NCBI GenBank assembly: GCA_010909165.1
Contig: MU008183.1
Span: 1 to 64,000, forward strand
Reading direction: 5' to 3'
DNA length: 64,000 nucleotides
From: Anthoceros angustus
Lineage: Eukaryota; Plantae; Anthocerotophyta
Shown: in pieces, positions 347 through 45,639 of the stretch
Layout: the number at the start of each line of letters is the position of its first letter
Numbering within the stretch: the stretch's first letter is position 1
The notes under the pieces: model-generated
The model's input: only the letters and a program-made list of their open reading frames with translations
What the model was told of the DNA's origin: nothing
Database searches by the model: none
Program-made: the position numbers and the translations under genes

Positions 347-430
347 CACTAGTAGAATAAGTCATTTACAACGTCCATAACGTGCTTTACAACGCATGAG
401 GTTGTAAAGCACATTTTGGACGTTGTAATA
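347..430 (+). repeat. Left TIR and subterminal repeats of CACTA element A
   Basis: CACTA terminus followed by direct and inverted TTTACAACG / GTTGTAA motifs. Confidence 0.75.
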
Positions 431-520
431 TGTGCTCAAAAATATATCGTATTGGTATACGATATCCATATATGGTATACCATATCCGCATATGGTAATA
501 GACACATACATGCGGCAGCG

Positions 521-830
521 TGGGGCTCACCAAGCAAAGAAATTGGGCTCACCGTGAGGCTCGCCAAGCAGTGAATTGGGCTCGCTGTGAGGCTCTCCAA
601 GCAAGAAATTGGGCTCGCCGAGGCTCGCCAAGCAAAGAAATTGGGCTCACCGGGAGGCTCGCCAAGCAGTGAATTGGGCTCGCCGTGAGGCTCGCCAAGC
701 TGGGGATCAAGCTCGTTGTACAGTGGATTGGGCCGGGGTTCTTGGCGGGGCTCACCATGGGGCTTGCCAGGGATCGCTGTGGATTGGGCCAGATTTACGG
801 GGCTCGCCAAGCAAGGGATCGATCTCGTGG
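521..830. repeat. ~34-bp tandem repeat
   Basis: Repeated AATTGGGCTCGCCGTGAGGCTCGCCAAGCA units. Confidence 0.9.
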
Positions 831-949
831 ATCGGGCTCGGATTGCTAAGTAGGTGATCGGGATTGCGCTATCGCCTCGAAATCAAGCACCATGAAGGAG
901 AAAGGACTCGAATGAGTGAGTGGCCATTATCCTCTTAGGTCGACACAGT

Positions 950-1380
950 TGCCCAAGTCTTGATGGGAGTAGCAGCCCAATTCTTCCCAATTGCTATGTG
1001 CAACCAAGTCTCGATGGCAATAGCAGCATAATCCTCCCCAATTCTTTTCGAATTTGTGCTATGTGGAGCCAAGTCTCGATGGAAGTAGCACTCAATTCTT
1101 CCCAATTCTTTCCGAATTTGTGCTATGTGGAGTCAAGTCTCGATGGAAGTAGCACTCAATTCTTCCCAATTCTTTGGAATTTGTGCTATGTGCAACCAAG
1201 TCTCGATGGCAATAGCGACAATTCTCCCCAATTCTTTCTAGAATTTGTGCTATGTGCAACCAAGTCTCGATGGCAATAGCGACAATTCTCCCCAATTCTT
1301 CTGGAATTTGTGCTATGTGGAGTCAAGTCTCGATGCAAGTAGCACTCAATTCTTCCCAATTCTTTGGAATTTGTGCTATG
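950..1380. repeat. ~57-60-bp tandem repeat
   Basis: Repeated TTGTGCTATGTG..CAAGTCTCGATGG..TAGC..CAATTCT units, about 7 copies. Confidence 0.9.
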
Positions 1381-1428
1381 TGTGTGTCTGGATATAATTA
1401 GTCTAATATGTATGTGGTCATGTGCTAG

Positions 1429-1742
1429 GTTTTCTAGTGTGGGCGGCAAGGATTACACAATCCTGTTGGTCTCTTCGTTGTTTGCCACAAAATCCAGCAT
1501 TGGAAGGACACACTCTTGTGGGAGACTCATCATGCCGGAGGTGGCCGTGGCGTGCTCGACCAATGGTTCAAGATGCTTTTGAGAAATGTAATTGTGTAAA
1601 CTGTAAGGGCAAAGGACTATGCGGGGAATCAAGTCCGTATTCATGAGCGTACATACGGAATATATCGAGGCGGAGGGAGGCGCAAGTTCGGAAGAAACCC
1701 CGTACCAAGTGAAGACTCACCGTGACGGCAAGCGTATATGAC
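1429..1742 (+). pseudogene. Putative 5' coding exon with a transposase-associated CxCxxC...H zinc-binding motif
   Basis: Reads KCNCVNCKGK then, after one frameshift, TMRGNQVRIHERTYG. Flanked by AG (1427-1428) and a GTGAGT donor at 1743, followed by an AT-rich intron-like segment. Confidence 0.55.
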
Positions 1743-1974
1743 GTGAGTTTCTAACCCCTTTGGTTAAGTATTTGAGATGTATATTGAGTTTCTAACCACT
1801 ATTTCGTGATACATTCAAGGTATATCATATTTAATATTAATATATATATTTATATTTATTTAGTATATGCATGCTCCTTTTAAATGTGCATGATGTGTCA
1901 TTGATGCATGATGGTTTCGTAAGTTAAACTGGTATGGTATGTAGTTTGTACTTATGATGATTATTTTTGTATAG

Positions 1975-2896
1975 TTGGCGTAACTTCCTATAGAGGACCA
2001 TGTTAGCACTCTTGATCCCGATGATGCGATGATGAACGCACTGTGGACACATGTCTGCTGGGTAGGAAAAATTTGGGTGGAAAGGAGAGTCACGTGGACC
2101 TTTCCTTGAACACCCTTACCACGAGAGGAGAGGATGCAAACTCTCATGATGCTGTTGTGTTATACAAGCGTCTTCTCAAAGGTGTATATCCCAAGGAGTG
2201 GGGAATGTGGGAGGAGGGGGCCCTTCTTATTAACAAACCATTTCCATATTGGGGTTGTTGGTGGATAGTGAAGGAGGCAACAAATCCAATAATGGGGTTG
2301 GGTTTGTTTGCCTTGGAAAAAATAAGTGTTAGTCGTAGCCAAAGAAAGGCGTTCCATTATTTGTGTTTGGTGGTCCCATGTATACACAGTGAGTTTAACA
2401 AGATTGGAGTGTGAGATTGCGAGTTTCAAAATATGCCTTAACTTTCAACAGATGTAGGCGTAAGAAGCTTACGTCACCTATAGTGTACTTGGATGGGCAT
2501 GTGGCATATGGGAATGTGGCAGGTTACATTAATAGCAGTAAACAAGGTAACTGTCTCTGGGAGGAAAGAGACGATGGGCATGAGCTATTGCATCATAGCC
2601 ACATGATGTGGGTGTGCACTTGGGCAGTGCGGACCATTGAAGCAGGTGAGGAGTTGTTTGTTGAGTACAATTGGTTTGACCCAAATTATGCGATAGCAAG
2701 AATAAAGGCTGCAGAGCGTGAGTATGCACATACTAAAGAGTATGTGCAAAGAGAGTGGAAGAAGATGAAGGCAAAGTTAATGCATGAAGACAGGGGTGCG
2801 GATGCGGAGGAGTATGTAGATACTGCAGAATATGCAAAAAGGGAATGGGAAAAGATGAAGGCAAAGTTGATGAAAGAGGATGTAGATTTAGAGTAG
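1975..2896 (+). pseudogene. SET-domain protein (lysine methyltransferase-like), frameshifted
   Basis: ORFs 2043-2414 and 2411-2896 together give SET motifs in the expected order: MGLGLFALEKI, PLFVFGGPMY, YLDG, GNVAGYINSS..GNC, AVRTIEAGEELFVEYNW. A duplicated C-terminal helix follows (EY..REW.KMKAKLM.ED x2). Confidence 0.85.
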
Positions 2897-3087
2897 TATT
2901 TGCATGACACGTGCTGAATGATGTGAATATTAGTTTTTCCTTACTGTGTTTGAAGTTTGAACATAGTTTATCTAGGTGATTGATATCCTTTAGAGATCAT
3001 GGTCAAGCTAGCCCATAATCAAGTATTATATATTTTATTTTATTTTATTTTAATAACATGTTATGTATGTTTCCTCAAAAATTCTAG

Positions 3088-6000
3088 GTTGAAGGGGAAA
3101 AATTCATGGTGAATCCATGCATGAGGAAGAAAACGAATACATTCACCCTCATGAACAAGTGGCTATAGAGATGGTGGAGGCACTTGGTGGAGTAGCTGGT
3201 ATTGCCGACATGACTGAGGAAGAGGTAAATTCTTTGCCTAAGGAATTGAAGAGAATGCATACAGCAACCACATCTTTATGGACCGGAGCCAAAACAAATT
3301 TGTCATTTACCTTATTATTGCTTAACGTCCAGAGGAGGCATTGTTGGTCGGATGCATCTGTGAATACTATGTTGGAATTAATAGGGAGCTTAGGACTCCC
3401 CGCTGACAACAAGTTGCCCAAGAATAGAGCTGAGATAAGAAAACTATTGAAGGGATTTGGCCTGTCTTATAAATCTATACATGCTTGTCCAAATGACTGT
3501 CTATTATTTCATGGCGAGCTACAGCTCCTGCTAATGTGCTGCAAGTGTGGGGCAAATAGGTATAGAACGGATACAAAGGGCAAAAAAATACCTGTGAAGG
3601 TGTTGCGTTATTTCCCATTAATTCCTAGGTTGAAGCAAATGTTTAGGTGCAAGAAGCTAGCTAGTATGATGTCTTGGCATGCAACATTTAAGTCTAGTGA
3701 TGGGATCATGCGAATACCATCAGACAGCCAAGCGTGGGAATATGTGGACCAAACATTTCCAGAGTTTGCTATGGAGACGCGCAATATTCGATTTGGGCTT
3801 GCTACTGATGGGATTAACCCGTTTGGACACCAGAGTTCTCAATATTCCATTTGGCCAGTGCTACTTGTCAATTATAACTTGCCTCCATGGATGTCCATAC
3901 GCAATGGACATATATTATTATCAATGATTATTCCTGGTCCGAAGCAAGTGAAAATGCACATTTATTTCCGACCGCTTATTGAAGAGTTGAAGATATTGTG
4001 GGAAGAAGGCATAATAGTGGACGATATTTCTGCTGGAGATGGGAATGCTCAAAACAATTTAGATTAAAAGCCTTATTGATGTGGACTATGCGACTACCGT
4101 GATATACGGTCACTTCAAAGCTTCAAACCAAAGGGAAGCGGGCATGTCCAAAATGTTGGGATAAACTTGAAGCACACAGATCACCACACACTAAAAAAAT
4201 GACGTATGATAAAAATTCTAGAATGCACTTGCCAGAGGAACACATGTCTAGGGTGGAAGAGAAGGACACATTTGATGGACGTCGGATCGCAAGTGTTCTT
4301 CCGAGCGATGAACCTGAGCTTATCGTAGAGAGAGTTTTTACGAAAACCGCAACTAAGGCGATCATAGGCCTTGGGGTGTCACAAGCAATGAACCTTCAAT
4401 TTTTGGGAGCTTCCATATTGGGAGGTAGGTATCGATCCGTTTTTATCCTTCACTTTAATATATTATAAAATGATTATGCTTTTAGAACTTTGTAGCAATC
4501 GAATGCTTACAATTATCATCAATATGCATGTGATGGCTGCGGTGTTGCTAATTAGACACTTGTTTGATATCATTCACATTGGAAAGAACGTTAGTGAACA
4601 AATTATGAGGCACATTTGTGGGGAGTTTGAAACCCTTTCGAGTCGTAGAGATCTCGAACTATCAAATACCAAGCAGGAATGGTGGCCCAAGGACAGGCCC
4701 CAACCTAAACCCAAGCCCAAGGGTAGGGCTAGGGCCAGGGCCATGGGCCATGGCGCCAAGCCCCAAGCCAAGTATGGGCCTAGGCCTAGGCAATCAAGGA
4801 AAAGGAAGAGAGGACAAGATGATGCAGTTGATGAAGGAAACGCTCGGGAACGTGTGCATATACGGACTCCAGCACCTTGGGTTCTTGGACATGGCACTAA
4901 CTATTCTTATCCTAAAGCATTGGAGAAATTGAAGAGAAGGGTTTGCAACATCCGTATGCCCACTGGGTATGGGTCCAACTTGAAACGTTGTTTTAAGAAA
5001 GGGACACGAGAGACAATTTCAGGCCTGAAGTCCCATGATCATCATCATTTGTTATGTGACATATGGCCAATTGCCTTGAGAGGGTTGATACATCCACATG
5101 TGCATAAGGCTATATGTGATCTCGCAGAACTAATGCGTTGGCTTACCGCAAAAGAAATTGTGAAGGATGAGATTCCTGCTATGAAGGTCAAAATTGCGAG
5201 GTGATGTGCATTTTGGAGAGAGAGTTTCCTACAACATTTCGACAAGCCGGTCCATCGTTATTCATCCGTGCGGAGGTTGAATTATGTGGGCCCACACGCT
5301 ATCGTTGGATGTATTTTCTTGAACGACATATGAAAGTGCTAAAGAACCTTGTACGACAAAAAGCTCGACCGGAAGGAAGCATGGCTTTAGGATATCTAGC
5401 ACAAGAGACAATGTTTTACTCTTGAATTCTTTGGAAATATCCATAATGCAGCTCCACGGATGTGGACAATGAAAGAAGATGTTACTCAAAGTGGGGAGTT
5501 GTTACAAGGATATGGAAAGATAAAGCGTCTGTCAGATGTGGAAAGGAGTCAAGTGAGGAAAGTGATATTAGAGAACTCGGAGTGGACTAAGCAATGGAAA
5601 GAAGTATATGATGACAACGAAATCGAAGATCGCCTTTTGTGGAGTGGTTAACTGATGAGGTGGAAGCAGCATCTAAAAGGGGAACTGCATTAGAAATATA
5701 TGGAAAGGAGGTGGTTGCACTTGTAAGAGGGCCATTTGAATCTGTGCGTTCTTATAGCATGATGTGGGCATATGGACATCATATTCGGACGGCGGATCTT
5801 GATGCTGGGAAACAAACTTGTGATAGCATCATAACACAACTATATACATTTCTATGTATTGAAAAACAGGGTGACCCTGAACCCATTGCAGCGCAGCTTC
5901 CGTATGTTGGAACAGTGGAGAGGATTTATGAAGTTGATTTTGGAGTTACTACAAATATAAATGTGCTCAAGGTAAAGTGGTTCCACACCCCCTGGAATGA

Positions 6001-6202
6001 GGATAGGACAGGAGAGAAAAGAGATGACTCCACTGGTATGGTCATGTTGAATCCAAACAAAACGTTATCTCAAGAAAAGCTGAAAGACGAACCATTCGTT
6101 ATGGTATCTCCGAAATTGGAGCGAGCTTTTATGCAAAATACCCAAAAATCTTGGAAACTTGTAGTTGGTACAACGCCGTGGAAGACGTGTAGTAGAATGT
6201 GA
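3088..6202 (+). pseudogene. CACTA transposase (Tnp2/Transposase_21 core, then DUF4218- and DUF4216-like regions), several frameshifts
   Basis: IHACPNDCLLF, PVKVLRYFPLIPRLKQMF, NIRFGLATDGINPF, WPVLLVNYNLPPW, IPGPKQ, ELPYWE|VLLIRHLFDIIHIGKNV (intron ~4425-4541), GLKSHDHH, RWMYFLERHMKVLKNLVRQKARPEGSMA, KVKWF...DEPFVM. Confidence 0.95.
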
Positions 6203-6923
6203 CGATTTTGATGGAAGACATGTCCATGAAGTGCTGGAATACAAGGATGACATGGAAGACGAGGATATCGATAGAAGACACGAAGTGGAAGATGATCATG
6301 AGCATATCGATGGAACTAGATATGTAGTGGAAGATAACGATGAAATGGAAGATGAGGATATCGATGGAATATACGTTGTTGAAGATGACATGGAAGATGA
6401 AGATATTGATGGAAGACATGTAATCAAGACGTCGACATAGAAGATGAGGATATTGATGAAAGACATGTAGTCGAAGATGAAGATGACATGGAAGATGAAG
6501 ACGACGGAAGATGAAGAGGAAGATGATGGTGATAGTGATGATGAGGATGACAAGGAAGATGCGGATGATGAGGAAGACGAGGATGCAGGTAGAGAGGATA
6601 TCGATGAAGAGACTACGGAAGATGAGGAGGGTAGCGAAAATGAGAAGGACATGGAATCAGAAGACGAGGACACCAACAAGGAAGAAGAGGAAGATGAGGA
6701 CAACAAGGAAGAAGAGGAAGATGTGGACGAAAGGGAAGATGAAGAGGAAAGTAAAGATGAGGATGATAAGGAAGATGAGGATGAAAGCAAAGATGAGGAT
6801 GACAAGGAAGATGAGGATGAAAGCAAAGACGAGGATGACAAGGAAGATGAGGATGAAAGCAAAGATGAGGACGAAAGCGAAGATGAGGATGACAATAAAA
6901 AAGATGAGGACAACAGCGAATGA
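6165..6923 (+). CDS. Asp/Glu-rich repetitive C-terminal extension of the transposase region
   Basis: ORFs 6165-6440 and 6477-6923 are almost entirely D/E with internal repeats (KDEDDKEDEDES) and overlap the end of the DUF4216-like ORF. Confidence 0.5.
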
Positions 6924-7039
6924 GCTACGATAGATATCATCTTACGTACATCGATGAGGAATTGAGAATGAGCGATACGTCATGTATGCGGTGTTAGAAG
7001 GTTTTGAAATTTCAAAATGTGATACAATGCTTGGGGTTT

Positions 7040-9310
7040 GAGTTTGGTCTTAATTATAACATATACAAGGCTTGCTTATAATGTGTGAATTATTTTTACG
7101 ATGGTGCGGGACTCGAACCATGAGCCCCTTATAATCGAACATATATACTTCTAGTTCATTTCATCGTAATGCCTTTGTCATTAAAGTGTTGATCTAGTTT
7201 CCTCCGTACTTTTGCCAACGATAGTAGCATGTACATCCTCGACTATTCCACACGTCCACCTTTCTTTGGATAAACAAAGATAGTCAAACCAAACCAAACC
7301 CAACCCAAGCAAATATTAGCCTTCCTCGTAGCAAACATCCTTTCCCGAGATTCGAGCTGGCCTTATGAAAGAAAAGGGTACGTAGACGTGGGACAAGGAA
7401 ACAATGCAAAGACATACTTATCCTTGAAGTAATCTCCGCAGATATTCTGAGGCACCGGCCTAGAGCTTTCTGGCACATGCTCCTGCCCTTTGTTAGTAAG
7501 AAATGCAATGAGGGCATGAATTCCCTAGAAAAGTTTAATCACGAAGTAAATTCGGCCGGTGAGACGAGTGACTACTGCAGTATCCAAAATCTGGCCAAGG
7601 CTAACTAGACGATTAGCAAACTATATGAAGGCATTAGAACTTCATATGGCCCACAAAAGGCGGAACCACCATCTCCCCATCAAAATCTAAACCCCCAATC
7701 TATTCACTAATATATGCTGATTCAAATACCAGGCGAACATATGGGAACTCGAACGATACGATGAGGCGGACTCGAACTATGAGCCCCTTTTGAACATACT
7801 CCCAATTGATTTGTGCACCTTAAAATGCCTTTGTCATCAACATCTAATTTCTAATTGAGTACTTTTGCCAATGGTAGCAGCATGTAACTATGCCAAGCTA
7901 TAGCTTGTCTAGCCTTTCTCTGGACAAACAAAGATAATCAACTTTCCAAGATGAAACGTTAACCCCAACCTGTTTTAGTGAAAACCGCTCCCAAAATCAC
8001 CCCTTGTGCCCCAATCTATTCAATACCAATTGCAAGTAGCCTCCCTCGCATCAAACATCCCTTGTTGGCTCTCTATGCAAGGAAAAGGTAGCATCTCCTA
8101 GAAGAAACGAGCTCCAATATTGTGCAAGAGCTCAATCTTTCTTCGACAAATATGACTGATACAATGGCGGCGCCCGACAATGTCTTGCTATACAATGGCG
8201 CCGACAATGGCTTGCCATACAATGGCGCCTAATGCCCGAGAATGGCTTGCCATACAATGCCGTGCACGCCCAACAATAATGGCGCCCAATTAACACAACA
8301 ATGGCGCCTAACGCACAACAATAATGGTGCCCCAATTAACGCCCAACGCCAACAATGGCGTCCGCCCAACAATGGCACCCAATTAACGCCCAACAATGGC
8401 GCCCAATTAACGCCCAACAATGGTGCCCCAATGACAATGGCTGGCCATACAATGGTGCCCAAATAACGCCCAACAATAGCGCCAACAATAATGGCGCCCA
8501 ATGCTCAACTATGACGCTTAACGCCCAATAATGGCGCCCAATGCTCAACTATGACGCTACGCCCAATAATGGCGCCCAACGCCCAACAATAATGGGACCT
8601 AACGCTCAACTATGGCGCTCAATTAACGCCCAAAATTGCGCCCAATACAATATGCCAAATTTAAAATACCCTCTCTCCCGTCTTCCACCCCCATCAAAAC
8701 TCTTCCTCGTTATCCCCGCCCCACTTCCCTAAAGGAAAGAGTATGTAGTCGGAGAAAGCAACAATGCAAAGACATACTTATCCTTGAAGTAATCTTCGTA
8801 GATTTTCCGAGGAACCGTCTAGAGCTTTCAAACATGCTATACTCTTTGCTAGTAAGAAATGTAATGAGGGCATGAATTTTCTAGAGAAGTTTAATCACAA
8901 AGTAAATTCGGCCGGTGAGACGAGTGACTACAGCGATCCAATCTAGCCAAGGCTAACTAGATGATTAAAAGACTATATGGAAGCATTAGAACTTCATATG
9001 GCCCAAAAAGGCGAACCGCCACCTCCCCATCAAAATCTAAACCCCAATCTATTTACTAATATACACCGATTCAAATTTCCAAGACGCCGAACGTGTGGGA
9101 ACTCGAACATGTCGATGAGGCGGACTCGTACTATGAGTCCCTTTTGAACATACTCCCAATTGATTTGTACACCTTACAATGCCTTTGTCATTTGATCCAA
9201 TTTCCATGGGTACTTTTGCCAATGGTAGCAGCAAGTAACCATGCCAAGCTATAGCTTGTCTAGCCTTTCTCGATAAACAAAGATAATCAACCTTCCAAGA
9301 TGAAATGTTA
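7040..9310. repeat. Internally duplicated/triplicated module within element A
   Basis: ~7380-7960 matches ~8740-9310; ~7090-7280 matches ~7755-7940 and ~9110-9290 (GCCTTTGTCAT...TACTTTTGCCAA..GTAGCA...AAACAAAGATA). Confidence 0.85.
8155..8655. repeat. CAACAATGGCGCCCAATTAACGCC minisatellite, block 1
   Basis: Dense degenerate 12-24-bp repeats with a CAATGGCGCC core. Confidence 0.9.
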
Positions 9311-9334
9311 ACGTGCTTGCGACAAATATGATCG

Positions 9335-10175
9335 GCTATACAATGGTGCCAGGGCGTCAATGGCGTAACGCCCAACAATGGCTTGTCATTCAATGGTGCC
9401 CCAACGCCCAACAATAATGGCGCCCAATTAATGCCTAACTATGGCGCTCAATGGCTATCTGATACAATGGCGCCAACGCCATTCAAAGGTGTGCGCCAAC
9501 AATAATGGCGCCTAATTAATGCCTAACTATGGCACCGTCAATGGCTTGCCATACAATGGCGCCGCGACAATGGCTTGCTCGATGGTGCCAACGCCCAATA
9601 ATGGCGCCCAAATAACGCTAACAATGGCGCCAATGCCCAATTATGGCGCCCAACGCCAACAATGGCGCCGACAATGGCTGGCCATAGAATGGTGCCCAAA
9701 TAACACCCAATAATAATGGCGCCTAACGCACAACAATGGCGCCTAATGCCCGACAATGGCTGGCCATACAATGGTGCCCAAATAACGCCCAATAATAATG
9801 GTAACGCCCAACAATGGCGCCCAATTAATGCCCAACAATGGCGCTTAACGTCCAACAATGGCGCCTACGCCCAACAATGGCGCTTAACGTCCAACTATGG
9901 CGCCCAATTAACGCCTAACAATGGCGTCCAACACCCAACAATGGTACCAAATTAACGCAACAATGGCGCCCAATTAACGCCAACAATGGCGCCTATTAAT
10001 GCCCAACAATGGCGTCCTACTAACGCAATGGCGCCCAAGTAATGCCCAATAATGGCGCCCAATTAACGCCTAACAATGGCGCCCACGCGACAATGGTGCC
10101 CAACGCCCAACAATGGCACCCAATTAACGCTTCAATGGCGCCTAACGCCGACAATGGCTGGCCATACAATGGCCC
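9335..10175. repeat. CAACAATGGCGCC minisatellite, block 2
   Basis: Same core as block 1. Confidence 0.9.
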
Positions 10176-10469
10176 CTGCGAAAGGTAAGCATGTAACATG
10201 TACCATCAAGTGCGCGCCTTGTGGGCATAGAGGTGGTACCTGCTCACAATAAGAACACTAAAGAAAATGCTAAAGAGCGTGACGTACTAGTATTAGAGCA
10301 CTAGCGGCCCCCCTCTCAACTTTTTCCCTCTCCATGCCAGACTGTGTGTAAGGGCTGGGATTAATGGAGTGCGAGCTGCCGAGTGGCACGCCTCCGTACT
10401 CTTGAATGGACGCGTTCATCATGCCCCCACAAAATAACCCCAATCAAATTTAAAATAGCCCTCCCGCCT

Positions 10470-11371
10470 CACATTTTGAAGAAAAATGCTTTACAACGTA
10501 ATCTACAACAAGGGAATCACGTCATCAATCGCTGTTGTAAATGGCCTCCTATCATATTTTTTGTGATTAATAACAATAATAAAGAGTTTAAAAAAAATAA
10601 AGAACACATTTTGAGAAAATTACTTTACAACGTAATCTACAACAAGGGAGCCATGTCATCAATCGCTGTTGTAAATGGCCTCCTATCATATTTTTGTGAT
10701 TAATAATAATAATAAAGAGTTAAACAAATAAAGAACACATTTTGAGAAAAATGTTTTACAACGTAATCTACAACAAGGAGCCATGTCATCAATCGCTGTT
10801 GTAAATGGCCTCCAATCATATTTTTGTGATTAATAATAATAATAAAGAGTTTTGAAGAAATAAAGAACAAATTTTGAGAAAAAGGCTTTTACAACGTAAT
10901 CTACAACAAGGAGCCACGTCATCGCATGTTTGTAAATGGCTTCCAATCATATTTTTGTGGTTAATAATAATAACAAAGAGTTTTGAAGAAATAAAGAACA
11001 AATTTTGAGAAAAAGGCTTTTACAACGTAATCTACAACAAGGAGCCACGTCATCGCATCTTGTAAATGGCTTCCAATCATATTTTTGTGATTAGTGATGT
11101 TAATAAAGATTTTAGAAAATAAAGATCAAATTTTGAAAAAGCTTTTACAACGTAATCTACAACGTGGGAGCCACGTCATCAATCCGTTGTTGTAAATGAG
11201 CACCCAAAAGAGTGCCACATCATCCAACTAGAAACCCCCGTTGTAAACCGAGTCTTAAAACTTGCCACATCAGCGAAACTCAAACCAATTTACAACGGAG
11301 GTGTTTAGACGTTGTAAAGATTGGGGGATTTGCAAAAGGGGTTTTGTAAAACACCCCTCTCCCTAGTAGTG
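10470..11371. repeat. Right subterminal ~130-bp tandem array and right TIR of element A
   Basis: About 6 units of TTTACAACGTAATCTACAACAAGGAGCCA..TCATC..GTTGTAAATGGC, ending in TAGTAGTG. Confidence 0.9.
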
Positions 11372-13456: not shown

Positions 13457-13652
13457 GGCGCTTACAAAATGCGTGTGAGCTTCATCCACCGCCTTCCTAA
13501 CCTACCTCCCAAAGATGCTCAACTCACCTTGTTTACCTGCTCTTGCAGTCTCTGGATGAATCAAGAAAACCACCACCGCCGCAAACATCAAGGCAAAATC
13601 AGAGAGAAGGGCTATCACATAAATCTAGGAGCATGCTGCAAGGAGGAGTAGA

Positions 13653-16600
13653 CTAGTGGGCTATCCCTTTTCCAAGCGCAGGTGATATTTGGCTGATCCC
13701 TGCTGCTGCCACATGCTTCTGATGCAGCAATTTTGGAAGTGCTTTTGTCAGGACATCAGCAACATTCTCACCTGTTGGAATATATCGAACATCTACCTCT
13801 CCTTTGTCATAAGCTTGTCTAATGAAATGATGTGTGATTTCGATATGCTTGGAGCGGGCGTGAAAAACCGGGTTCTTCGTGAGTGCTATAGCCGATTGGT
13901 TGTCACACCACAACCTTGTAGCTCGGTGGCAATTGAAGACCACGTAGAAAGGAACGTAACCAAAATGACTTCACGGGCAGCTTGAGGCATGCTCGTGCTT
14001 AGTGGATGATAGACAAATTGTCGTAAGCTTCTTGCTAGACCAGGATACCACTGAGCCACCCAACAGGTTACAATAAGCTACTATGCTCCTTCTTGAATCC
14101 GGATCTCCAGCCCAATCCGCATCGCAAAATCCAACTAGCTCCAATCCAGCAGCCTGCTTGGTATACTTCAGGCCTAAACGAGGAGTTCCCTTAAGATAAC
14201 GGAATATTCTCTTAACTGCTGCCCAGTGCACCTCTCCCGGGTTCTCTAAAAATTGAGAAACATTGCTTACCGGATATATCCAACCTTGTCCAAGATGCTA
14301 GATATAGAAGACTACCGCCGTATGGGCGAGTGGCCATCAAGTCCTTCTCTTCCGTGTAGTTGGGCAATGTTCCGGATAGCTTCTCACTTGTTGACATAGG
14401 TGTTGACAGGCGTGCCTCGGCCATGTTGAACTTGAAAGTAGTGAAGTGCTCTTGATGCAACTCAAGCTGTATGCCTATCTTGAGAAAACTGGGCCGAACA
14501 CCAAGAGAAAACAAAGTTGCCCAAGGTCGGTCATGTCAAACGAGATAAAAGAACACTTTTGATTCGCCATCAACACCAAAGAATCTTGAAAGGAAGTTGT
14601 CGTCACATAAACGGATATAATAAGAAAGTCATCTCCATCCCACAATATGTAGCGACTATCAAGATCCAAGCGGGTAAAACCCAATTCTATCGGAGCATGA
14701 ACGCGTTTCATTCCAAGCTCTGGATTGTTTCAGCCATAAAGTGTCTTGAGCAATAGGCAAACTTTCTCCTCGTCTATAACAAAACCTTCAGGCTGATGCA
14801 TGTAAATCTCTTCTTCTAATGTACCATTAAGAAATGTTGTCTTAACGTCTAGTTGGTGAACGTAAAGACCAAAATGGGCTGCTAGAGATAGCAATATTCT
14901 GACTGAAGTAGACTTCACCACAGGCGCAAATGTCTCGTTATAGTCTAACCCAGCAACTTGGCTATATCCTTTAGCTACTAACCTAGATTTGTAGCGGCCA
15001 ACACTGCCATCTGTGTTGAGTTTCTTTTTAAAGACCCATTTACAAGCTACTGGTTTACGACCTTCTGGTAAGTCTACAAGTTTCCAAGTACCATTTTCCA
15101 TTAAAGAGTTGTATTCAGTATGGACTCCTTCCAGTCGCCTCGGGCCCTGATGGCTTCAAGGTAACTAGTTGGCTCATAAGTGTTAAAGTTTGGAACAGAG
15201 TTTTGGAAGCTACACCAGAACAAATGGTGGTTACATCCACTCATGGCGAGGGGTCTAGACCTAGTAGACCGGAAGGGTGAGGATGGTGTGGCTTGGCGGA
15301 AGGAGGATCGAGGCAACTAAAAATCGAGGCACGGAGGATCAACTCACATTCATCAAGGAGCAAACTCAGCAGTAAAGTAGACTCATCCGATTCAAGAAGA
15401 TGACATGGTGATGGGCGAGGTGACTCGGGTTGATGTGCCCCGAAGTCAAGAGTTGTATCCTCAAAATCAAAGAAGCAACATCGGTGTCCTTATCATCAGG
15501 AAAATCAGCGTCATCATCAACACCATGGATAGTGGCGAGGCAACACATAAGAAGGTGATAACAAGTCATGTCGGAGTAAAGCATTCTCATGGAAAATCAC
15601 CTGCGTGAATAAGTAACTTGCCGAGTCGATCAACGACTTGTAACCCTTCACTTCCTCGGATAGCCAACAAAGATTCGACGACGACCGGGTCGAGCTTACG
15701 TCTCGGTGAGAAGGTACAAGGGCATATGTGCTGCCAAAATCCGCAAGTGAGTGATGCGTGGCTTCTTGCACATCCAACGTTCATATGGTGTAATGAGCCC
15801 AAGTTCTTTGGTAGGGACGATTACGCACATAAGTAGGCAGCGAGCTTCGCCCGGTAGCCCCGAGTCGATCCGGAAAAGACAAACTAGAAAGAGTGGCCTC
15901 TTGTAAGTACGATTTTGCGTTGACAAAGCGCATTCAGGCGGTGTATATGGTACGATGGCGATGAAGAACTCCCTCTGTTGCACAAAAGTCTGAAAAGGCA
16001 TGACTAATGTATTCTCCACCATTGTCTGACCTCAAAATCTTGAGTTTGCAGCCTGTCTGTCGTTGGGCCATAGTGACGAAATCTTGGAAACAGGTGAAAG
16101 TGTCACTTTTGCTATGCAGCACATATACTTTACAATATCTGCTCCATTCGTCAATGAAGGTCAGGAAATATTGGGCACCCCCAAAGGAGGCTGTGGACAT
16201 GGGGCCACAAAGGTCACTGTGAACCGTGTGGAGAAGACCGGTGCTCTGGATAAGTTCTGATCTCTAAATGGCTGGGAAATGGCTTTGCTAACTTGACAGA
16301 ATCGCAAAAGCATGGTTATCAAATGAGAATGACAGAATCTCTAAAAGCGTTATTCACCAACAAAGACAAACGCTGAAAATTGACGTGTCCCAAACGACAA
16401 TGCCACGGTGAGTGGGAGATAGTGATGGGACTGGTCATGGGTGCTTGGGAAAGAGTCCTGACATTCAAGAGATACAAGTCATTAAAAGGAGTTCCAGAGA
16501 AAATTTCATCCCAGTCAGCTATGTTAGAAATGGAACAACCAGAATGATCAAAACAAATTCTACAGGAGTGTTCCTCAGAAAGCTTAATGACTGACATTAG

Positions 16601-17810
16601 ATTTTTAGTCATGGCTGGGACAAATAGGACACCTGTAAGAATCATCGTGATGGAATTAGGCAGCTCGAGGGTGACTGAGCCTGAACCTTTAATGGACAGA
16701 CCACTATCATCACCTAATAAGACGAATCGACTATCGGTAAGAACTCATGGAAAACGCCTATCGTAACAAATGTGGCTAGTAGCCCCGAGTCCAAAACCAC
16801 ATGTCATCGAATTTGAAAGCTAAACAAACGAAGAATGGAAGGTGACTTAGCCGTTGTTGATGGCTTGGTAGCTAGGTTGGATTGAGGCGATCCATCCTTG
16901 CGTGGCTCTCAGACGCTTCTTCCTGATCCTTCTCAAAATGTCACGGATCTTACACGATTACAAGTAAAAGTCTTCCTTTGGAGATTTGGGTTTTAGTGGA
17001 ATAGCCCCTCGACCTTGTCCTCCACGACCACGTCCACGAAAGCTCCCTCGCCTCGGCGAAAATAGAACTCTCGAACTAAAATGTTGTTGGGAAGTCTCCT
17101 TTCCCTTATGAAAACCCTTAGTGCGCTCTTAGCAAAGCCCCTATCAGTTGGTCCAAGGAGGCGACAGCGGCAGAGGATGCACGAGCGGTGAACTCATAAA
17201 ATGGTAGCTCTGCGGAAGTGAAGCTAACATGGTCGGCTTGTTCCTCTGTAAGGGTTGTGCCACGATGCCAAGGTAGCTCGTGCGATCTGAGCGGTTAATA
17301 TAGGATTCAACGGATTCGTTGTCCCTCATCCTCATGCCAAAGAAGTCCTGTGCAAACACAGGATGCATTACTCTTATCCTTGTAAATCTGAAACTATGCC
17401 ACCACAAGCGAGGTGGTAGCACCCAAGGTGTGAGGCATCATGTTTTCGAGAGAAGCTATGAGGATTGAGCGTGCTCTCCTGTCCCTTCGTTTCGATCGAG
17501 CGTCTGCTGCATTTGTACCTTCTGCTGGGCATACTTCACTTCCATCTACCACCGACATCAACTCATTTTCCTCAAATATCCGGGTCAATCTCAATGACCG
17601 GTGTTGTAGTCGTTTCCATTGAAACGATCCTTGTCCCACAAATCGATCTTCAAGGCGGGTTGAGGAAGAGCGTGCCATAGTTGAGGTGGATGCCCGTCGA
17701 GGCGATGTGGAAGTTGTCGCAGTAGTTGTTAGCGTGAGGATCCCTCCGGTTGTGGTTGGGCGTGTTACATTCTGCTCGGGGAGATCAGGTGTCGCTCCCA
17801 AAGGAACCAC
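13653..17810 (-). pseudogene. copia gag-pol (frameshifted)
   Basis: Gag (LMSVVDGSEVCP, RARSIL), protease/pre-integrase region (VLFVPAMTKNLMSV, WHCRLGH), integrase (YFLTFIDEWSR, LRSDNGGEY), RT (TWKLVDLPEGRKPVACKWVFK, YKSRLVAKGY, QLDVKTTFLNG), RNase H (GFCDADWAGD, CDNQSAI, HARSKHIE, ADVLTKAL). Confidence 0.95.
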
Positions 17811-18489
17811 GGGGTATAACCAAAACCTCCTCGTGGCCCTTCACGAGCACCTTGTGGTTCTCTAGGATGCCCGAACTCAAAATTGAAATCAGGACGCCTA
17901 TAGCGTTCTTCACCACGCGTGGATCGGGATCGATCGCTCTGATGCCGCCGGAATCTAAGTCAAGTCCTCTTCTTGAGGAGGATCGGGCGTGTCCTAGGCG
18001 GCATCACATCCAACTCAAGCAGACATCGGTGGGGTCGCTTCTGCAACAAGCGGTCGAGCTCCACAAACTTCATGCGCTTGGAGTTCGATGGGTCGACATC
18101 GGAGGTAGAGTTGCGTGATACGCGGTGAGGCTCTCAACCAAATCACAAGTTCACGCACCTTAGCACGGCATGAAAGGACTTCACTTTCCTTTTCTGTCGG
18201 GGCCGCCTCGAGCGAGATGCCGTGGCTGGTGCGATTACCGTCTTGATTCTGGATGGAGGGTGATGGGCTCACTGCGCCTAGAACGGTTGCACGGTGGAAG
18301 CCTTGGTGAAGATTGCCGGACAGAATGATGATAATTCTCCGGCAAGTTGTGCGAAAAACCGGTTCGGTGAGGGAAAGTGATCAACTTCTATGTTGACCTT
18401 CCGCCTAGGCGCACGTGAGGCAATCCCTCTCTTAGGCATCGTGCCTCGTCACACATGGGCGCTCGTGATTGCCTAGTGGCTCGATACCA

Positions 18490-19564: not shown

Positions 19565-20230
19565 CACTACTAGGAAAAGTGTACTTTTACCACGGACATT
19601 ACTACGGACTTTACAACGGGCATTACTACTCCCGTAGTAAAATGTCACTAGTAATCACATAGCGTTAGTGTCTGTGGTAAAGTCCAGTACATCGTATATG
19701 ATGGCTATACTCTGTATTCTATACGGAGTACGTATGGAGTATGTTAATAAAGTCTACCGTATACTAGTTACTCTTTAAATTACCAAACCTTTTACCACGG
19801 TATTTACTACATCAACAACCACGGACTTTACTCGGCCTAATCGTGGTTAAAAATAATGGTTAGTTAACGAGATTAGCTAACTACGGTATATTAACTTCAG
19901 TTAAATGAGTGGGTTTGGTTAATCATATGTTGACCATAGTTAATTAATCACGGTTAAGTAATCCGACACCGTTGTAAAATTCCATTGGATTCCTTGTAAA
20001 TCTCTCCGTTGTAGAAAAGATCTTCTAGTAATATTTTATAGTAAGTATTAAGTAGTAAAATCCTGTAGTAACAGCGTGGTTAACATATGTAGTAAAATTC
20101 TATAGTAAAAGTATGTTGTAAAATTCTATGGTAAAAGTCCGTAGTAAAATTCTATGGTAAAAAGTCCGTAGTAAAATTCTATAGTAAAAAGTTCGTAGTG
20201 AAATGTTTAGTAGTGGACTCTGTAGTAAAT
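19565..20230 (+). mobile_element. Orphan left end of a CACTA element (TIR plus subterminal repeats)
   Basis: CACTACTAGGAAAAG at 19565, followed by many TTTACTACGG / GTAGTAAAA repeats; no partner TIR was found. Confidence 0.7.
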
Positions 20231-23900: not shown

Positions 23901-24437
23901 TCGCGGTGTACAAAGTATGTACGTTATCCGTGTGACGTATATGCTTATTTTATATAAAATAGAATATGACCGTATATCACGAAATTACCATATAGTATAT
24001 GTTACCATGAACAATACGTGTATTTTACAAAGAATATATTCATATGTATTTATATATATGTGTATTCATACAGTATTGGTGGAACTACTAAGTAAAACTA
24101 GGTATTCCATAGGGTAATAGTAGTAAAAGAGGAAGGTAGATGGGAGGAGGTTTGGTACCAAGCCCGCAAAATTGTAACAAGAGACGATGTAACACTTTGG
24201 TTGTTGCAATTATGTTGAAATTTTGAGAGGGGACACAAACCACCTCTCACTACATTGCAACATAATTGCAACAAGACTATACCATGACTGTAACAAGGTG
24301 GAGGGTTGGTTTCCAAACCTAACTGTAACAAGGGGTCCCAAAAGTGTAACAAGACCCCAAGATTTTAACATAATTGCAACAAAGGGGGGTCCAAATCTTA
24401 ACAATAAGTGTAACATGACTGCCCTTTTCTAGTAGGG
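20913..24437. mobile_element. Non-autonomous CACTA-like element with CCCTA termini
   Basis: TIRs CCCTACTAGAAA(A)GGGCAG..ATGTTACA at both ends; 3-bp TSD CAA at 20910-20912 and 24438-24440; TGTTGCAA/TGTAACA subterminal motifs; no transposase. Confidence 0.9.
21370..23530. repeat. Tandem ~650-bp units, each containing (GGA)n polypurine tracts
   Basis: Units start with CTAGCTAGTGTGATTTGATGTTAGAGAAGGCGATAG at ~21911, 22586 and 23231; GGA-rich tracts differ in length and purity. Confidence 0.9.
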
Positions 24438-26235
24438 CAACCCCGTCCTTCATGTCTGATCTCAAAGAAAAAGATAGGTTTAATGGCACGAAGTACCCAG
24501 TTTGGAGAGTGCGCATGAAAGCCATCTTGATTGCACGTGGTTGCTGGAGGGTTGTGGATGGTTCCTTTTCAAAACCAGATCCCAGCGGGTTCCTGGTGAC
24601 AAGGAAAGGTGGGCCGCCTGGCAACGGTTGCCGCAGCGATTCTTATCAATGGCTCCGCAGACTCGTCCCGATGTTGAGTGCACGACACGGGCATCCAACC
24701 GAATCAGCTCGAGAAGACGTATCAAGTCATTAACATTATGACTAAATGCGTTGTCTGGCAGGAGTATTACTCTCTACGAATGAAAGAAGGGGATAAGGTG
24801 GGCGTCTTTACCAGCAAATTCCGTCACCTCCGATCACAGCTTGCCTCCTTCAACATCAAGATTGAGGAGGAGCATGCCGTGGTTCAGTTGCTGAGCAGCT
24901 TGCCAGCTACTCTTTCAACAATTTGTCAGCTCCTATAATGGACCACTGAACGCCTCCCAAGCTGCTGCTGCCGCCGGAATTGCAAGTACGCTGACAGTTG
25001 ATGACATTGTCGCTGCCCTCCATCAGGAGGAACAGAGCAGGCTGTTCTCTATTAGTGGATCCAAGCCCAAGGCCGAAAAGGTCTTGGCGGCTCAGTTCAA
25101 GCCAAACAAACAGAAAGGCAAACCATAGTGGGTCTGGGCAATCTTCTCTTACAAAGAAATCTGGAAATTGCAACTGGTGCGGAATCCATGGACACTGGGC
25201 TCGAGGCATCGTAAGAAGGCGAACCCGGAAGAAGGCTTCCACGGTGTTTGTGGGGACAAGGGCTCGAATGAAAATTCGACATCTGCAGGCTGACAGCAAA
25301 GGAACAGTTAGAATATACACAATTTGCCTCTCTAATTCAAAGCACAATAGGGACAGTTGGTACTTGGATTGGGTGCAAGCGCCCACATACTAAGGGCAAT
25401 TTGTTCTCGTACAGATACCTCTCACCTTCTTTGAAAGGTGTTGCTTGGAGCGAGAAAAAGAGGCGAGCCTTCACATTGAAGGCGGGGGTAAATGCACCTT
25501 CATCTTACATATGGCCCGACTTGGTTTTGGAAGATGTTCTGTATGTGCCGAGGATGGCCAAGAATCTTGTGTCCTTGAGTCGTTTGCTTAGCATGAGAGC
25601 ATATAGTATGTTTGCAGACAAGAGTTCCTGTTCTTTCTATACCACTGCTGTTCCACACAGACTAGTGTTTAGAGGCATTCCAGACGGTGACCTGTACCGC
25701 CTAGATATCCATTGTCAGCCTGCACCTGTTACATTCTCAACAACTCCAGGTCAGATGGACTCCAAATTTTTAGCTTCTCTTTGGCATGCCAGGCTTGGTC
25801 ACGCCAACAGGGCTAAGCTAATCGATATGTCAGCTACGGACTGCTATAGAGAGCCTTTACCACAGTGCTTCAAGGATTTGCCTATTTGTGAGGCTTGTAT
25901 CTTGGCGAAGCAGAAGGAGCAGCCATTTCCCACCACCCCAGCACACAGAGCCAGTCACGTCCTTGAGTTAATACATGCGGATATCTTAGGAAAAATCCAC
26001 GAGCCATCACTAGGAGGTTCTCGATATTACCTTTCCCTTACAGATGACTTCAGTCGCTATTCCTGGACCTTCCCCATGCAGCTCAAGAGTGACACTTTTC
26101 ATTTGTTCAAGGAATGGCTCCCTGTGGTGCAACGCCAGACATGACAGGTGGTTAAATGGCTCCGCACGGACAATGGCACTGAATTTGTGAATGCCCAGTT
26201 TGATTCTTATCTGCAGGAGCATGGAATTCGGCGAT

Positions 26236-26943
26236 TGTGATTCTTATTGTGGTAAGGGAGAATCAGGGGCACTCCAGGGTCCTCCACTATAAGCGGCCAC
26301 ACTTATCCCAGCATCGCCCCGTGCGTTGGGTTTCGTCCCATGAGACTTGTGTGAAAGTTCGAGGTCTTGTGATGCCCAATCGTTACCTGCACAACTCTCG
26401 GCCTTCTAAACAAGCAAGGCGCCCTCTCTCTCCCCTCACGTGCACCGCTTGCTCGCCAACCCCGACCCACACAACAATTGCCTCGGTGACGAGCCTACCA
26501 CGGGCGCCGGGGACCCCAGTTCACACCGCGATTTCGTCCCTACTTCTAAGACCAAACTTGACCTACAACAATTGCGGTCACCTCGTGACAGAGCCTACCA
26601 CGGGCGCCGGGGACCCCAGTTCACACCGCGATTCGTCCCTACTTCTAAGACCAAACTTCTCCACTCGGGGGCGCTCTTTACTTGCAGTTGGGATTCGCGC
26701 TCCATTGACATTAGACAAGGACAGGGCGGGGAGCTATGGAGACGGCTCCCACTGCATAGGTATGACCCAGCTCCTGGTACAAACATACTTGCTCTAGAAG
26801 GTTCAGACGAGATATCCAATGCATCCATCTGGAGGGCCATAGCAGATTTGATTTGACGCCAGAAAACAACTTTTACCAACAGCTTTGATGAGATTACAGG
26901 CTTGCGAAGGCGATGTATGCATGGAGCCTGCAATCGCCGCAGG
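26236..26943. mobile_element. Unidentified insertion breaking copia integrase, with a ~95-bp tandem duplication
   Basis: Integrase homology stops at a TG-starting segment (TGTGATTC); GAGCCTACCACGGGCGCCGGGGACCCCAGTTCACACCGCG...AAGACCAAACTT occurs twice. Confidence 0.4.
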
Positions 26944-27690
26944 NNNNNNNNNNNNNNNNNNNNNNNNNNNNNNNNNNNNNNNNNNNNNNNNNNNNNNNNN
27001 NNNNNNNNNNNNNNNNNNNNNNNNNNNNNNNNNNNNNNNNNNNNNNNNNNNNNNNNNNNNNNNNNNNNNNNNNNNNNNNNNNNNNNNNNNNNNNNNNNNN
27101 NNNNNNNNNNNNNNNNNNNNNNNNNNNNNNNNNNNNNNNNNNNNNNNNNNNNNNNNNNNNNNNNNNNNNNNNNNNNNNNNNNNNNNNNNNNNNNNNNNNN
27201 NNNNNNNNNNNNNNNNNNNNNNNNNNNNNNNNNNNNNNNNNNNNNNNNNNNNNNNNNNNNNNNNNNNNNNNNNNNNNNNNNNNNNNNNNNNNNNNNNNNN
27301 NNNNNNNNNNNNNNNNNNNNNNNNNNNNNNNNNNNNNNNNNNNNNNNNNNNNNNNNNNNNNNNNNNNNNNNNNNNNNNNNNNNNNNNNNNNNNNNNNNNN
27401 NNNNNNNNNNNNNNNNNNNNNNNNNNNNNNNNNNNNNNNNNNNNNNNNNNNNNNNNNNNNNNNNNNNNNNNNNNNNNNNNNNNNNNNNNNNNNNNNNNNN
27501 NNNNNNNNNNNNNNNNNNNNNNNNNNNNNNNNNNNNNNNNNNNNNNNNNNNNNNNNNNNNNNNNNNNNNNNNNNNNNNNNNNNNNNNNNNNNNNNNNNNN
27601 NNNNNNNNNNNNNNNNNNNNNNNNNNNNNNNNNNNNNNNNNNNNNNNNNNNNNNNNNNNNNNNNNNNNNNNNNNNNNNNNNNNNNNNNNN
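26944..27690. other. Assembly gap (N run)
   Basis: 747 consecutive N. Confidence 1.
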
Positions 27691-28719
27691 AAAGGGTGTG
27701 TCTATTCACCCTACCTAGCTTAAGTTCGGTTTATATGTCATTCTTCATATACTCATTGATATATAAATATATAATGTAATTGTTTAATATAGCAATTGGT
27801 CTACAATCTATCCAATATTGTCGTAAGATGGTGTTGATTTTGTGAAATGGCTTAGGGAAGCAGAAAACCACAGCTGTCGGGCACACTTTCGTGAAGTCAT
27901 CAGGCTGCATCCCATTCTGGTTAGAAACTTGCATGTGCTTTGATCTCCCCTTCCATGAACATCATAGATTGTAGCCAAAGTCACCTCGCCATATCTTGCA
28001 GTTACGCAGCGTTTGTTGCATCTGATCCATTTAGAAACCTTATTGCTCACATCACGTAGCGCGCAAAACCCTAGGCAGAACCTCCCAAACATCGTCGTAA
28101 CGGCCTGATGTTTGGGCCATGTTAACCTTCACCTTCATCTGCGACTTCCCTTCCTCGTCGATTTAGCTGCTCGGATGACATCGGCCGACCCTCGCGGATT
28201 CTCCATCGGCACCGGGACCTTCTCCTCGATTGGTTGCCTTTCCACACCTTGACCACAGGGCGTCACGGCTATTGCGGGAGCCGTGAGGGGCACATCCTCT
28301 TCACATCCTCGTCATCTGATAATCCATCCAAATAAGTCCTGCTTTGCTCCTTGTGGAAGCGGGCCTCAGGGGATCCTCGTCGAGTCCTCACTCCGTGGCC
28401 TCTAATGCCCTACTCGCAGCGTCGTGAGGCACTGTGCACGATTGGGCAAAGGGTGCCACTGCGATTGCCGCCCAGCGCCATCCTGACCAGACCATCCCAG
28501 CAAGCTCTTACCCTCACCCCTGCCCCGCGCCTCTCACCCGCGTTTGCATCGTCAGCCCGGAAGTCACTTGTGGTAGTCTGGCGCCGCAGTAGCGCTCGGT
28601 TGTACATGTCCTCCTCAGGCCTTGTAGAGGCGTCTGCCTTCTGTGCCTGTGTCCGGGACTTCTTCATCAGACCAATTATGTCAATGAAACGCCCGTCGCT
28701 TCAACCGCGGATGCAAAAC

Positions 28720-29778
28720 CGACCGGTTAGCACACGGTAGCGATGGGGTGAAGCTTCTCTATGAAACAATCCCCACAGGATGATGAGGACAAAGCAGCCA
28801 TGAGTCAGATCCCTTATCGTCATGCGATGGGTTGCACGATTACATAGCTTTGGACAAGGCACGATATTGACGCTCGTGAGCCTAAATATCACAACATCAC
28901 CGAGAACCGAAGGCCACTGACCATTGGATGGGTATCAAGTAGCGCATCGCCATCTAAAGGAGCGTCCACTTATGGGTTATGCTTCAATGGAGCTGAGGAT
29001 TCTAATACCATTCAAGGGTATGCCGATGCCGAATGGGCAACCGATCCGGACCTGCGGAGGACCATCTCAACTTATTGTTTTCTACTTTCCGGTGCTGCTG
29101 TCAATTGGAGCTCGAAGAAGCAAGCCTCCGTCGCACTTTCCTCCACCGAAGCGGAGTATAAGGCACTCACCGATTCAGCTAAGGAAGCCGAGTGGGAGCG
29201 GACTTTTCTCTCCGGCCTGAATTTTCCTCAACCAGCCCCAACTACTATCTACTGCGACAATCAATCTACCATTGCGCTTGTTGGGAATCCTCGTTTTCAT
29301 GCCCGCACCAAACACATCGAGATTCAACATCATTTTGTTCGCCAATCCGTGGAGCACAAGGTGATTCAGATTGATTATATTCCAACGGAACTGAATACAG
29401 CAGATGTTCTTACGAAAAGCTTACCTGCCCACAAGCACTGTTTTCATCTGGAGTCTTTGGGCTTGGTGGATTACACTTCCTACTCGCCAGACTCCGCTTC
29501 TGCATAATTTCAAAGGCGCGCCCCCGTCATTTGATTGATTCTAACCAGCATCGTGGTTAAGGGGGTGTGTTAAATATATAACCACATTTGCTGGTTACTT
29601 AAGTTAGATTTAGGTTAGCTTTATATGAACAGTTATTTATTCATTGTATTTAAGCTACACTTTACATTTAATTGATAAGTTTTATGTGAAAGTGTTTGCT
29701 CTCGCTCACTGCTCTAGCTAGCCACGCTTGCCATTATTTATAGGAGGGGAGCGCAAGACACGATAATTTTACTTCACA
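28720..29778 (+). mobile_element. copia 3' fragment: RT end, RNase H, PPT and 3' LTR (29568-~29778)
   Basis: GYADAEW, NWSSKKQASVALSSTEAEY, IYCDNQSTI, FHARTKHIEIQHHFVRQ, ADVLTKSL, stop at 29507; PPT AAGGGGGTG followed by TGTTAAAT...TTCACA. Confidence 0.85.
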
Positions 29779-35031: not shown

Positions 35032-35348
35032 TACTTACAGAATAACTTCCACTGACACATGCGCCGCCTAACGTAAAAATGTGTCGCGAATTATGTAGAC
35101 CTGTCATCTGCCCGCTCGCGTTTAATACCCGCTATTGTTCTTCTTTTTCTGGAAATCTCGCAGGACATGCGGTGGCTGGAAATTCGGAATTGCAAGCGCT
35201 TTGCCTTCGCATGGGTGGATGTCCTGCGCCCGCCGTATTGAGCGACCCTACACCGGCTACATGCCTATAGAGTTTAATTGTGACACACCATGCCAATTGT
35301 GAGCACCGTCATCCTCAAGAGCACAACCCACATAAACATTGGGAGAAT

Positions 35349-42750: not shown

Positions 42751-42999
42751 CATCTCCCGCTTCCTAACGGTCTTCACCGTCCCCAAATCGGTAGGCCCAG
42801 ACATACACCTTCTCCTCACCTTCCACGGGCCCGAGGTCCGGCCCAAATCGGAGGGGCAGCACTTCATCCCCTTCGCCCGCTGGAGCCGGCCGCTCAGACG
42901 GTGTCATAATCCGTTCCTTCAGACGCTCCGCCCATGCCGCCTCCCACCGCTAAACGGTATTCTATTGGCGGTCCGCCATTGCTAAGGACACACCGCCCA

Positions 43000-45260: not shown

Positions 45261-45639
45261 CCTGGTGTTGTGTTCGGTGAAGGGGTATGTGGGTGCATGC
45301 ATGTGCGTGAATATGGTATGTATGTCCGCTTATGGACATGCATGCATGGTGGGAATGAATGATGGATGTGCATGCGATGCTGAACATGCACTACAACAAA
45401 AAGCTTGGATTTATGACGGGCTTGTAATGACGGGTTTCTAGTTGCCACACTATTGGGCCTTAAAAACGACGGCGCGGCTGATATATGACGGTTTGGTGTG
45501 TATGTCATTGTGCTTGAATGACGGAGAGCCAGCCCGTCTTTTTCCATGTCATACTCTCGCTGTCCTATGCCATTGTTGGCCCCAACAGGTCCGGAAGAGC
45601 TTGCGGTTACCAGCTCCACCGGTTCGGATGCTCACGGCG

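Follow-up and report, generated by a model that had tools for sequence, protein, structure and literature searches.

The DNA analysed here, called the window in the following, is a stretch of 64,000 nucleotides of Anthoceros angustus (MU008183.1). It contains a CACTA-type element with subterminal repeats at both ends, a candidate first exon, a broken exon encoding a SET domain and the broken exons of a Tnp2-type transposase (Table 1). The preliminary description had placed the SET motifs inside CACTA ends and on the transposase strand. Both ends were found and the Tnp2 exons lie downstream on the same strand, but a 3-bp target-site duplication is absent around this copy, which is flanked by GCT on the left and CAT on the right. 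We therefore use the label CACTA-type and do not claim a single intact insertion.

Table 1. Positions of the CACTA-type element and its parts in the window.
Feature	Position	Strand	Evidence and remarks
CACTA-type element, 11.0 kb	347..11371	+	Ends CACTAGTAG / CACTACTAG (reverse complement), 8 of 9 terminal bases match
Left end and its subterminal TTTACAAC repeats	347..428	.	Repeats at 365, 386 and, inverted, 401
Candidate exon 1 with CxCxxC..H motif (1587-1659), frameshifted	1429..1742	+	Resembles the N-terminal Transpos_assoc domain of TnpD
Predicted intron GT..AG, 28% GC	1743..1974	+	Phase-0 intron, same place in L003, L004 and L005
SET exon, broken	1975..2896	+	Pfam SET, leave-window-out profile, motif order
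N-terminal extension with G-x-W..F	2193-2290	+	Part of the SET exon
SET core	2292-2671	+	Asn-Ser-Ser from 2531; final Tyr 2669
Helical tail, 70 aa, with internal duplication	2682..2893	+	Not in the metagenome relatives
Stop of the SET exon	2894-2896	+	
AT-rich spacer, 28% GC; the predicted transposase-exon acceptor is at its end	2897..3087	+	Matching CAG|GAC acceptors in L003-L005
Tnp2/TnpD transposase exons, several frameshifts	3088..6923	+	PF02992 E 4.6e-43; PF13960 E 5.8e-17; TnpD profile segments
Right subterminal region	10475..11371	.	Repeats of about 131 bp, each with TTTACAAC in both orientations, then terminal TAGTG

The TTTACAAC repeat occurs three times at the left end and 13 times at the right end, in both orientations at both ends. 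Between 8150 and 10180 there are two arrays of short CAACAATGGCGCCC-type repeats, which lie within a larger duplication inside the element. The transposase carries the domains Tnp2 (Transposase_21, Pfam: PF02992) and DUF4218 (Pfam: PF13960), has an intron donor after LPYWE at 4425, with the same intron in three relatives, and shows an acidic tail at about 6200-6923. Its coding sequence is spread over several frames and is thus broken, like the SET exon. The best 120 long Tnp2 relatives listed are mostly flowering-plant TnpD proteins with 35-51% identity, and PF00856 is on record in none of these 120. A TnpA-like product was not detected by Pfam on the ORFs tested, nor was a TnpA found by tblastn of 640 ORFs from related loci against 347-1500 and 6200-11371, where it has to be considered that TnpA diverges fast and that this copy is broken. 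The motif of the window exon 1 is not significant by itself (with each of the two profiles it ranks 8th among about 426 tiles, against a window-wide null), and the exon was assigned because of its position and because the relatives described below have the same exon.

Two overlapping ORFs with ordered SET motifs had been reported for this locus. All of these motifs, their order and their strand stand: GLGLFA is found in the ORF 2025-2414, FGGPMY follows at 2366-2383 in the next frame, and YLDG, GNVAGYINSS..GNC and AVRTIEAGEELFVEY are found in this order in the ORF 2399-2896, all on the forward strand. FGGPMY is, however, in neither of the long ORFs, and 1975-2896 is one exon and not two genes. 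The Pfam SET model (Pfam: PF00856) matches the ORF 2399-2893 with an E-value of 2.2e-6 and 28.5 bits, above the curated cut-off of 22.4, which confirms the SET assignment; a second value for the window ORF is 29.3 bits. We also built a leave-window-out SET profile from 16 relatives, which matches 2193-2336 with 31 bits and 2342-2677 with 89 bits, and the X read-through of the window exon scores 132 bits against it. No other SET-profile match above 0 bits was detected in the six frames of the 64 kb. The structural model of the window half-domain is poor (pLDDT 64.7) and gives weak matches with a best E-value of 0.29, all 46 of those listed being SET proteins. The SET domain homology of 1975-2896 is real.

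The SET exon is interrupted by a TAA at 1981 and changes frame near 2340; further stop codons follow at 2390 and 2396 (alternatively, there are two compensating shifts). AT-rich spacers flank the exon (28% GC compared to 44%), with a GT at 1743 and AGs at 1974 and 3087. The contigs of a single DNA run extend over most of the element and its SET exon. In a variant among them, 17 out of 95 bases differ in the 5' part of the SET exon, and for the seven changes listed the coding frame has 4 synonymous codons out of 6, compared to 2 and 1 out of 7 in the two alternative frames. At 2340 the run contigs have an extra A, which unites GLGLFA and FGGPMY in one frame, but single-base deletions are numerous in the contigs and occur even within conserved motifs, and contig depth is not copy number, so both the sign of a second variant and the extra A are only hints. 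Some of the breaks in the window may be assembly errors, and the one-base indels that are frequent across the whole window may reflect long-read assembly error.

Besides this element, a second, GC-rich CACTA-type element is found at 41001-49012, with a CACTACTAG end at 41001 and a duplicated Tnp2 piece (44437-45236 and 46493-48970). It has no SET and forms a very long branch in the Tnp2 tree. At 19565-20230 a CACTACTAGG end has dense subterminal repeats of its own and lacks a neighbouring transposase; this is probably a non-autonomous or truncated element. A possible host gene lies on the minus strand at 33694-35034, where one of two ORFs matches BTB weakly (Pfam: PF00651, E 0.045) and the other has a Cys cluster and a coiled coil. 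ORF translations revealed frameshifted Copia-like and Gypsy-like retroelement pieces at 13650-17840, 24400-30970 and 54300-56630. A run of N at 26944-27690 is a scaffold gap.

SET-bearing relatives and predicted gene structure

A phmmer search against 1.84 billion representative proteins gave seven hits, four of which are true SET relatives, all with G(Y/F)INS and without the His. The remaining three (P0122, P0125 and P0127) were discarded as repetitive proteins without SET. P0126 matches the 5' ORF of the window as well, with 51% over 35 amino acids. The SET ORF gave no match, near or longer, in word-index protein searches, and a single-ORF pattern scan of metagenomes gave none either. The same type of scan pointed to a viral locus (L001, E 1e-3), which was rejected as it fits neither the SET nor the TnpD profile, and in one-pattern scans no member of the SET family was found in viral contigs or prokaryote genomes.

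With the alignment of the four phmmer relatives we fetched 15 metagenome loci, which are 11 distinct ones (L012-L015 are near-identical, and L002 and L011 overlap exactly). In 10 of the 15 loci (7 of 11 distinct) SET is followed by Tnp2 on the same strand, and in 7 of the 15 it is preceded by the CxCxxC..H exon. Taken together, exon 1 and/or Tnp2 are adjacent on the same strand in 13 of the 15 loci (9 of 11 distinct). In the loci without Tnp2 the contigs stop 0-715 bases past SET and are too short to judge; two distinct loci, L006 and L016, have room upstream and lack exon 1. Exon 1 matches Transpos_assoc (Pfam: PF13963) in all six relatives tested, with E-values of 5.5e-6 to 1.1e-3 that are below the curated cut-off, and Pfam SET matches 16 of the 17 family rows at E<=0.1. 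The SET exons of the relatives are open, with 190-206 codons. In L010 a CACTACTAG end precedes exon 1 by about 400 nt, while none of the metagenome relatives has both element ends. The order exon 1 - SET - Tnp2 is conserved, and the data support that SET is a regular part of this CACTA-type family and not a one-off capture.

Some loci have features of their own. In L016 (3569-5576) an NIF/FCP1 phosphatase-like ORF (Pfam: PF03031, E 1e-15) lies directly upstream of the SET ORF, in a contig that contains neither the exon 1 motif nor Tnp2, which is possibly a second layout with SET joined to an accessory gene. L006 (1-941) is a short contig without exon 1 or Tnp2; its SET looks more canonical (LHGLGLFS, EYVS), has the same N-terminal extension and forms a long branch. 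On the minus strand of L004 (1-115) an ORF begins that has a YE..R..NI..N motif, of a kind known from transposon accessory proteins, and that points away from the SET/TnpD unit.

In L003-L005 dN/dS is 0.16-0.18 for the SET core at a dS of 0.7-1.05, 0.16-0.19 for the region before the core and 0.10-0.25 for Tnp2. Seven more distant pairs of SET cores were compared, of which five are saturated and two give 0.11-0.15. The SET exon of the relatives is under purifying selection, with values like those of Tnp2. A single-copy, neutrally decaying capture of a host gene, which the preliminary description had considered, is not what we find. Such a Pack-CACTA-like capture of a decaying SET fragment would agree with the stops and frameshifts of the window copy, but there the transposase is broken too, the exons of the relatives are open and selected, the placement of SET agrees across 9 of 11 distinct loci and no close host protein was found among the 1.84 billion representatives. 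We consider it the most improbable of all explanations.

The Tnp2 tree comprises 39 rows, including 30 of the 120 database proteins. All seven metagenome SET-bearing transposases fall into one starred clade (99/95), and the window transposase is its distant sister on a long branch (81/93, not starred). P0002, a transposase that may or may not be linked to SET, falls between the window and the other SET elements. The window SET is 30-50% identical to the other SETs of the family. This suggests that the window holds a distant sub-lineage and that the association of SET and CACTA is old. The SET tree is too weak to argue for co-descent, being poorly resolved with 2 of 13 inner branches starred and showing congruence with the Tnp2 tree no further than L007 and L009.

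A phase-0 donor follows exon 1 in all six relatives listed, in five of them at ..SIL|GT, and L003, L004 and L005 have phase-0 acceptors at both the SET and the Tnp2 exon. In these three relatives the exon 1-SET and the exon 1-Tnp2 joins are both open, and exon 1 plus SET gives 268 amino acids with its own stop. The SET exon is thereby predicted to sit in the first intron of the transposase gene. From the conserved phase-0 splice sites we infer that the unit makes two proteins with a common N-terminus, and we regard such a shared-exon layout as very probable. Exon 1, whose CxCxxC..H motif is Zn-binding by its pattern, would be joined either to the SET exon, giving a protein of about 270 amino acids, or instead to the Tnp2 exon, giving the transposase.

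A fusion of the SETMAR type, in which exon 1, SET and Tnp2 are spliced into one protein, would be consistent with the phase-0 boundaries and with the collinear arrangement of the three parts on one strand. A GT between the final Tyr and the stop is absent in 5 of 9 relatives, though, and the other four share no donor. As the SET exon ends in its own stop and no donor is conserved, SET is not fused to the catalytic domain, and SETMAR as the nearest model is not supported by this gene structure. We judge the fusion to be very improbable; together with neutral capture it is nearly excluded.

Fold, motifs and proposed function

The model of the L005 protein (pLDDT 83.5) has the SET fold, in agreement with the domain assignment of the preliminary description. 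Foldseek found EZH2 (E 1.7e-8) and MLL1 (E 2.4e-8), and the Z-scores are all tied, with 12.6 for SET7/9 and SET8, 12.5 for Set1, 12.0 for EZH2 and 11.8 for PRDM5. The rmsd to SET7/9 and SET8 is 2.7-3.0 over 123-137 residues. By sequence, the closest solved relatives are LegAS4, MLL1 and ASH1L (E 2e-8 to 2e-7). A likeness to the chlorovirus vSET had been proposed and finds no support: viral SET models fit L005 no better than cellular ones (best E 5.4e-7 compared to 1.7e-8), and the one-pattern scans of viral contigs gave no family member. No host or viral SET class stands out as closest, and the matches give neither origin nor substrate.

The named motifs had been interpreted as the SAM-binding G-x-G, NHS-type and EEL..Y motifs of SET domains. 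Counting the rows that cover each column, G-x-G is kept in 12 of 12 and 11 of 11, the Asn in 17 of 17 and the final Tyr in 14 of 14, and the L-F after G-x-G and the Glu are kept too, whereas the His of the NHS motif is Ser. Relative to RFINHS, both His>Ser and Arg>Gly are found in all 17 rows, 12 of which were fetched with that very pattern, leaving five that are unbiased for these two changes. The change to NSS had been taken to cloud activity. The His is indeed absent, and a post-SET Cys cluster was found in none of the nine intact metagenome SET exons listed, but NSS is a trait of all relatives and not a sign of decay. LegAS4 (YINFS) and ATXR5 (FISGIN), which were solved with a histone peptide, are without the NHS His as well. 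Eight of the nine exons end 2-4 or 8 residues past the final Tyr, and the window carries its helical tail where the post-SET would be.

We took the active-site and switch positions to be those given by alignments to solved SETs and by the customary motif names. In 9 of 11 rows Phe takes the place of the first active-site Tyr, and no row has a Tyr at the switch position. According to PMC3868588, a Tyr>Phe change at the first site turns G9a into a trimethylase, and the post-SET always helps to form the cofactor site. Phe at the first site without a switch Tyr would favour di- or trimethylation. We lean slightly towards an active methyltransferase.

The element is known here from its DNA sequence, through layout, fold model and selection. 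We give an about even chance to the reading that the window holds a broken copy of a Tnp2-type CACTA family in which SET is an alternative last exon and its product methylates histone lysine on the element's own chromatin. The shared N-terminal domain, putatively a DNA- or chromatin-targeting Transpos_assoc domain, would take the SET protein where the transposase goes, the methylation would keep the element active, and the SET protein would fill the regulator role of TnpA. This self-directed anti-silencing is the weakest step and is somewhat less probable than not to be right. The anti-silencing by Arabidopsis TnpA proceeds without H3K9me removal, according to 10.64898/2026.08.24.746577, and a histone writer is therefore not needed for that role. 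Rather unlikely is the most far-reaching version, that an old plant-type CACTA clade swapped TnpA for its own histone methyltransferase. After a shared zinc-binding exon, the splice choice would then lead to the transposase or to a minimal SET enzyme, one of a new, post-SET-less subfamily that writes an activating mark on the chromatin of the element itself.

With the same layout, SET might instead be a non-catalytic reader or decoy that attaches to methylated histone tails or to silencing complexes of the host and guides or protects the transposase, with no transfer of methyl groups. The missing post-SET, the changes His>Ser, Arg>Gly and Tyr>Phe that are fixed in the family, and the PR domains and MLL5, which score near active SETs in the fold search, point in this direction; but G-x-G, Asn and final Tyr are invariant at 30-50% identity, and the conserved N-terminal extension or a partner could close the pocket. 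We consider this unlikely, and still less likely the other main rival, an active methyltransferase with another target or sign, such as the transposase, a host non-histone protein, a repressive mark that restrains the element or a mark at the insertion site. SET7/9 and SET8, which are among the best structural matches, have non-histone substrates (TAF10, ER complexes), EZH2 is among the top matches too, and the exon 1 shared with the transposase would co-locate both proteins. However, with no SET class standing out the matches do not predict the substrate, and selection on a selfish element would more readily keep an activating function.

If methylation of the element's own chromatin is true, the transposon would use its transposase gene to produce a histone-lysine writer and so counter chromatin silencing directly, and the splice switch would couple the levels of writer and transposase. 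The unusual SET subfamily, with AG(Y/F)INSS, no post-SET and a conserved N-terminal extension, informs about the minimum that a SET enzyme needs. Some of the SET genes counted in such genomes may in fact be transposon exons.

Comparison with known systems

SETMAR (Metnase) is a domesticated fusion that exists as a single copy and has both pre- and post-SET. Its SET chain (3bo5) has a Z-score of 9.3 in the fold search with L005. SETMAR and the window have in common that SET is found beside a transposase, but here the two are predicted alternative products of a mobile family.

SET had been thought not to be described for CACTA elements. For Tnp2-type elements this holds: one with a SET exon was not found in the literature on CACTA/EnSpm and SET, a search with Repbase and most subscription journals outside it. 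The Plavaka elements of red algae, in the same EnSpm/CACTA superfamily, do carry SET, in the accessory gene PAG2, for which a role as chromatin modulator was proposed (10.1101/2025.02.11.637652). PAG2 and the window SET are both cargo of superfamily elements, but PAG2 is a separate gene with an N6-adenine methylase and SET beside a Plavaka transposase. The window element has a Tnp2-type transposase and a SET exon that shares exon 1 with it; Pfam finds only SET, and no N6-adenine methylase, on this exon. Further DNA transposons with SET are HarbingerS and MuDR of Phytophthora, with a SET histone-methyltransferase-like gene (PMC12730594), and proto-Helentron-Pi, with SET as a stand-alone ORF (PMC4067079), which as described there belong to other superfamilies and to oomycete hosts. 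SET cargo is thus already in print for DNA transposons, and the Tnp2-type shared-exon layout was not found in print.

In maize and Arabidopsis, En/Spm resembles the window element in its CACTA ends, subterminal repeats and Tnp2 transposase, and in the alternative splicing of regulator and transposase, which is predicted here. In Spm, TnpA and TnpD are made by alternative splicing of one unit, as stated in PMC1636069. VANC of the VANDAL MuDR elements is an unrelated protein of another superfamily and might be a functional analogue, as element-encoded anti-silencing. The known plant anti-silencing factors TnpA and VANC bind DNA and borrow host enzymes. Where the En/Spm TnpA is a DNA-binding activator that recruits host DNA demethylases (PMC1636069, 10.64898/2026.08.24.746577), the predicted alternative product of the window element is a SET-fold protein.
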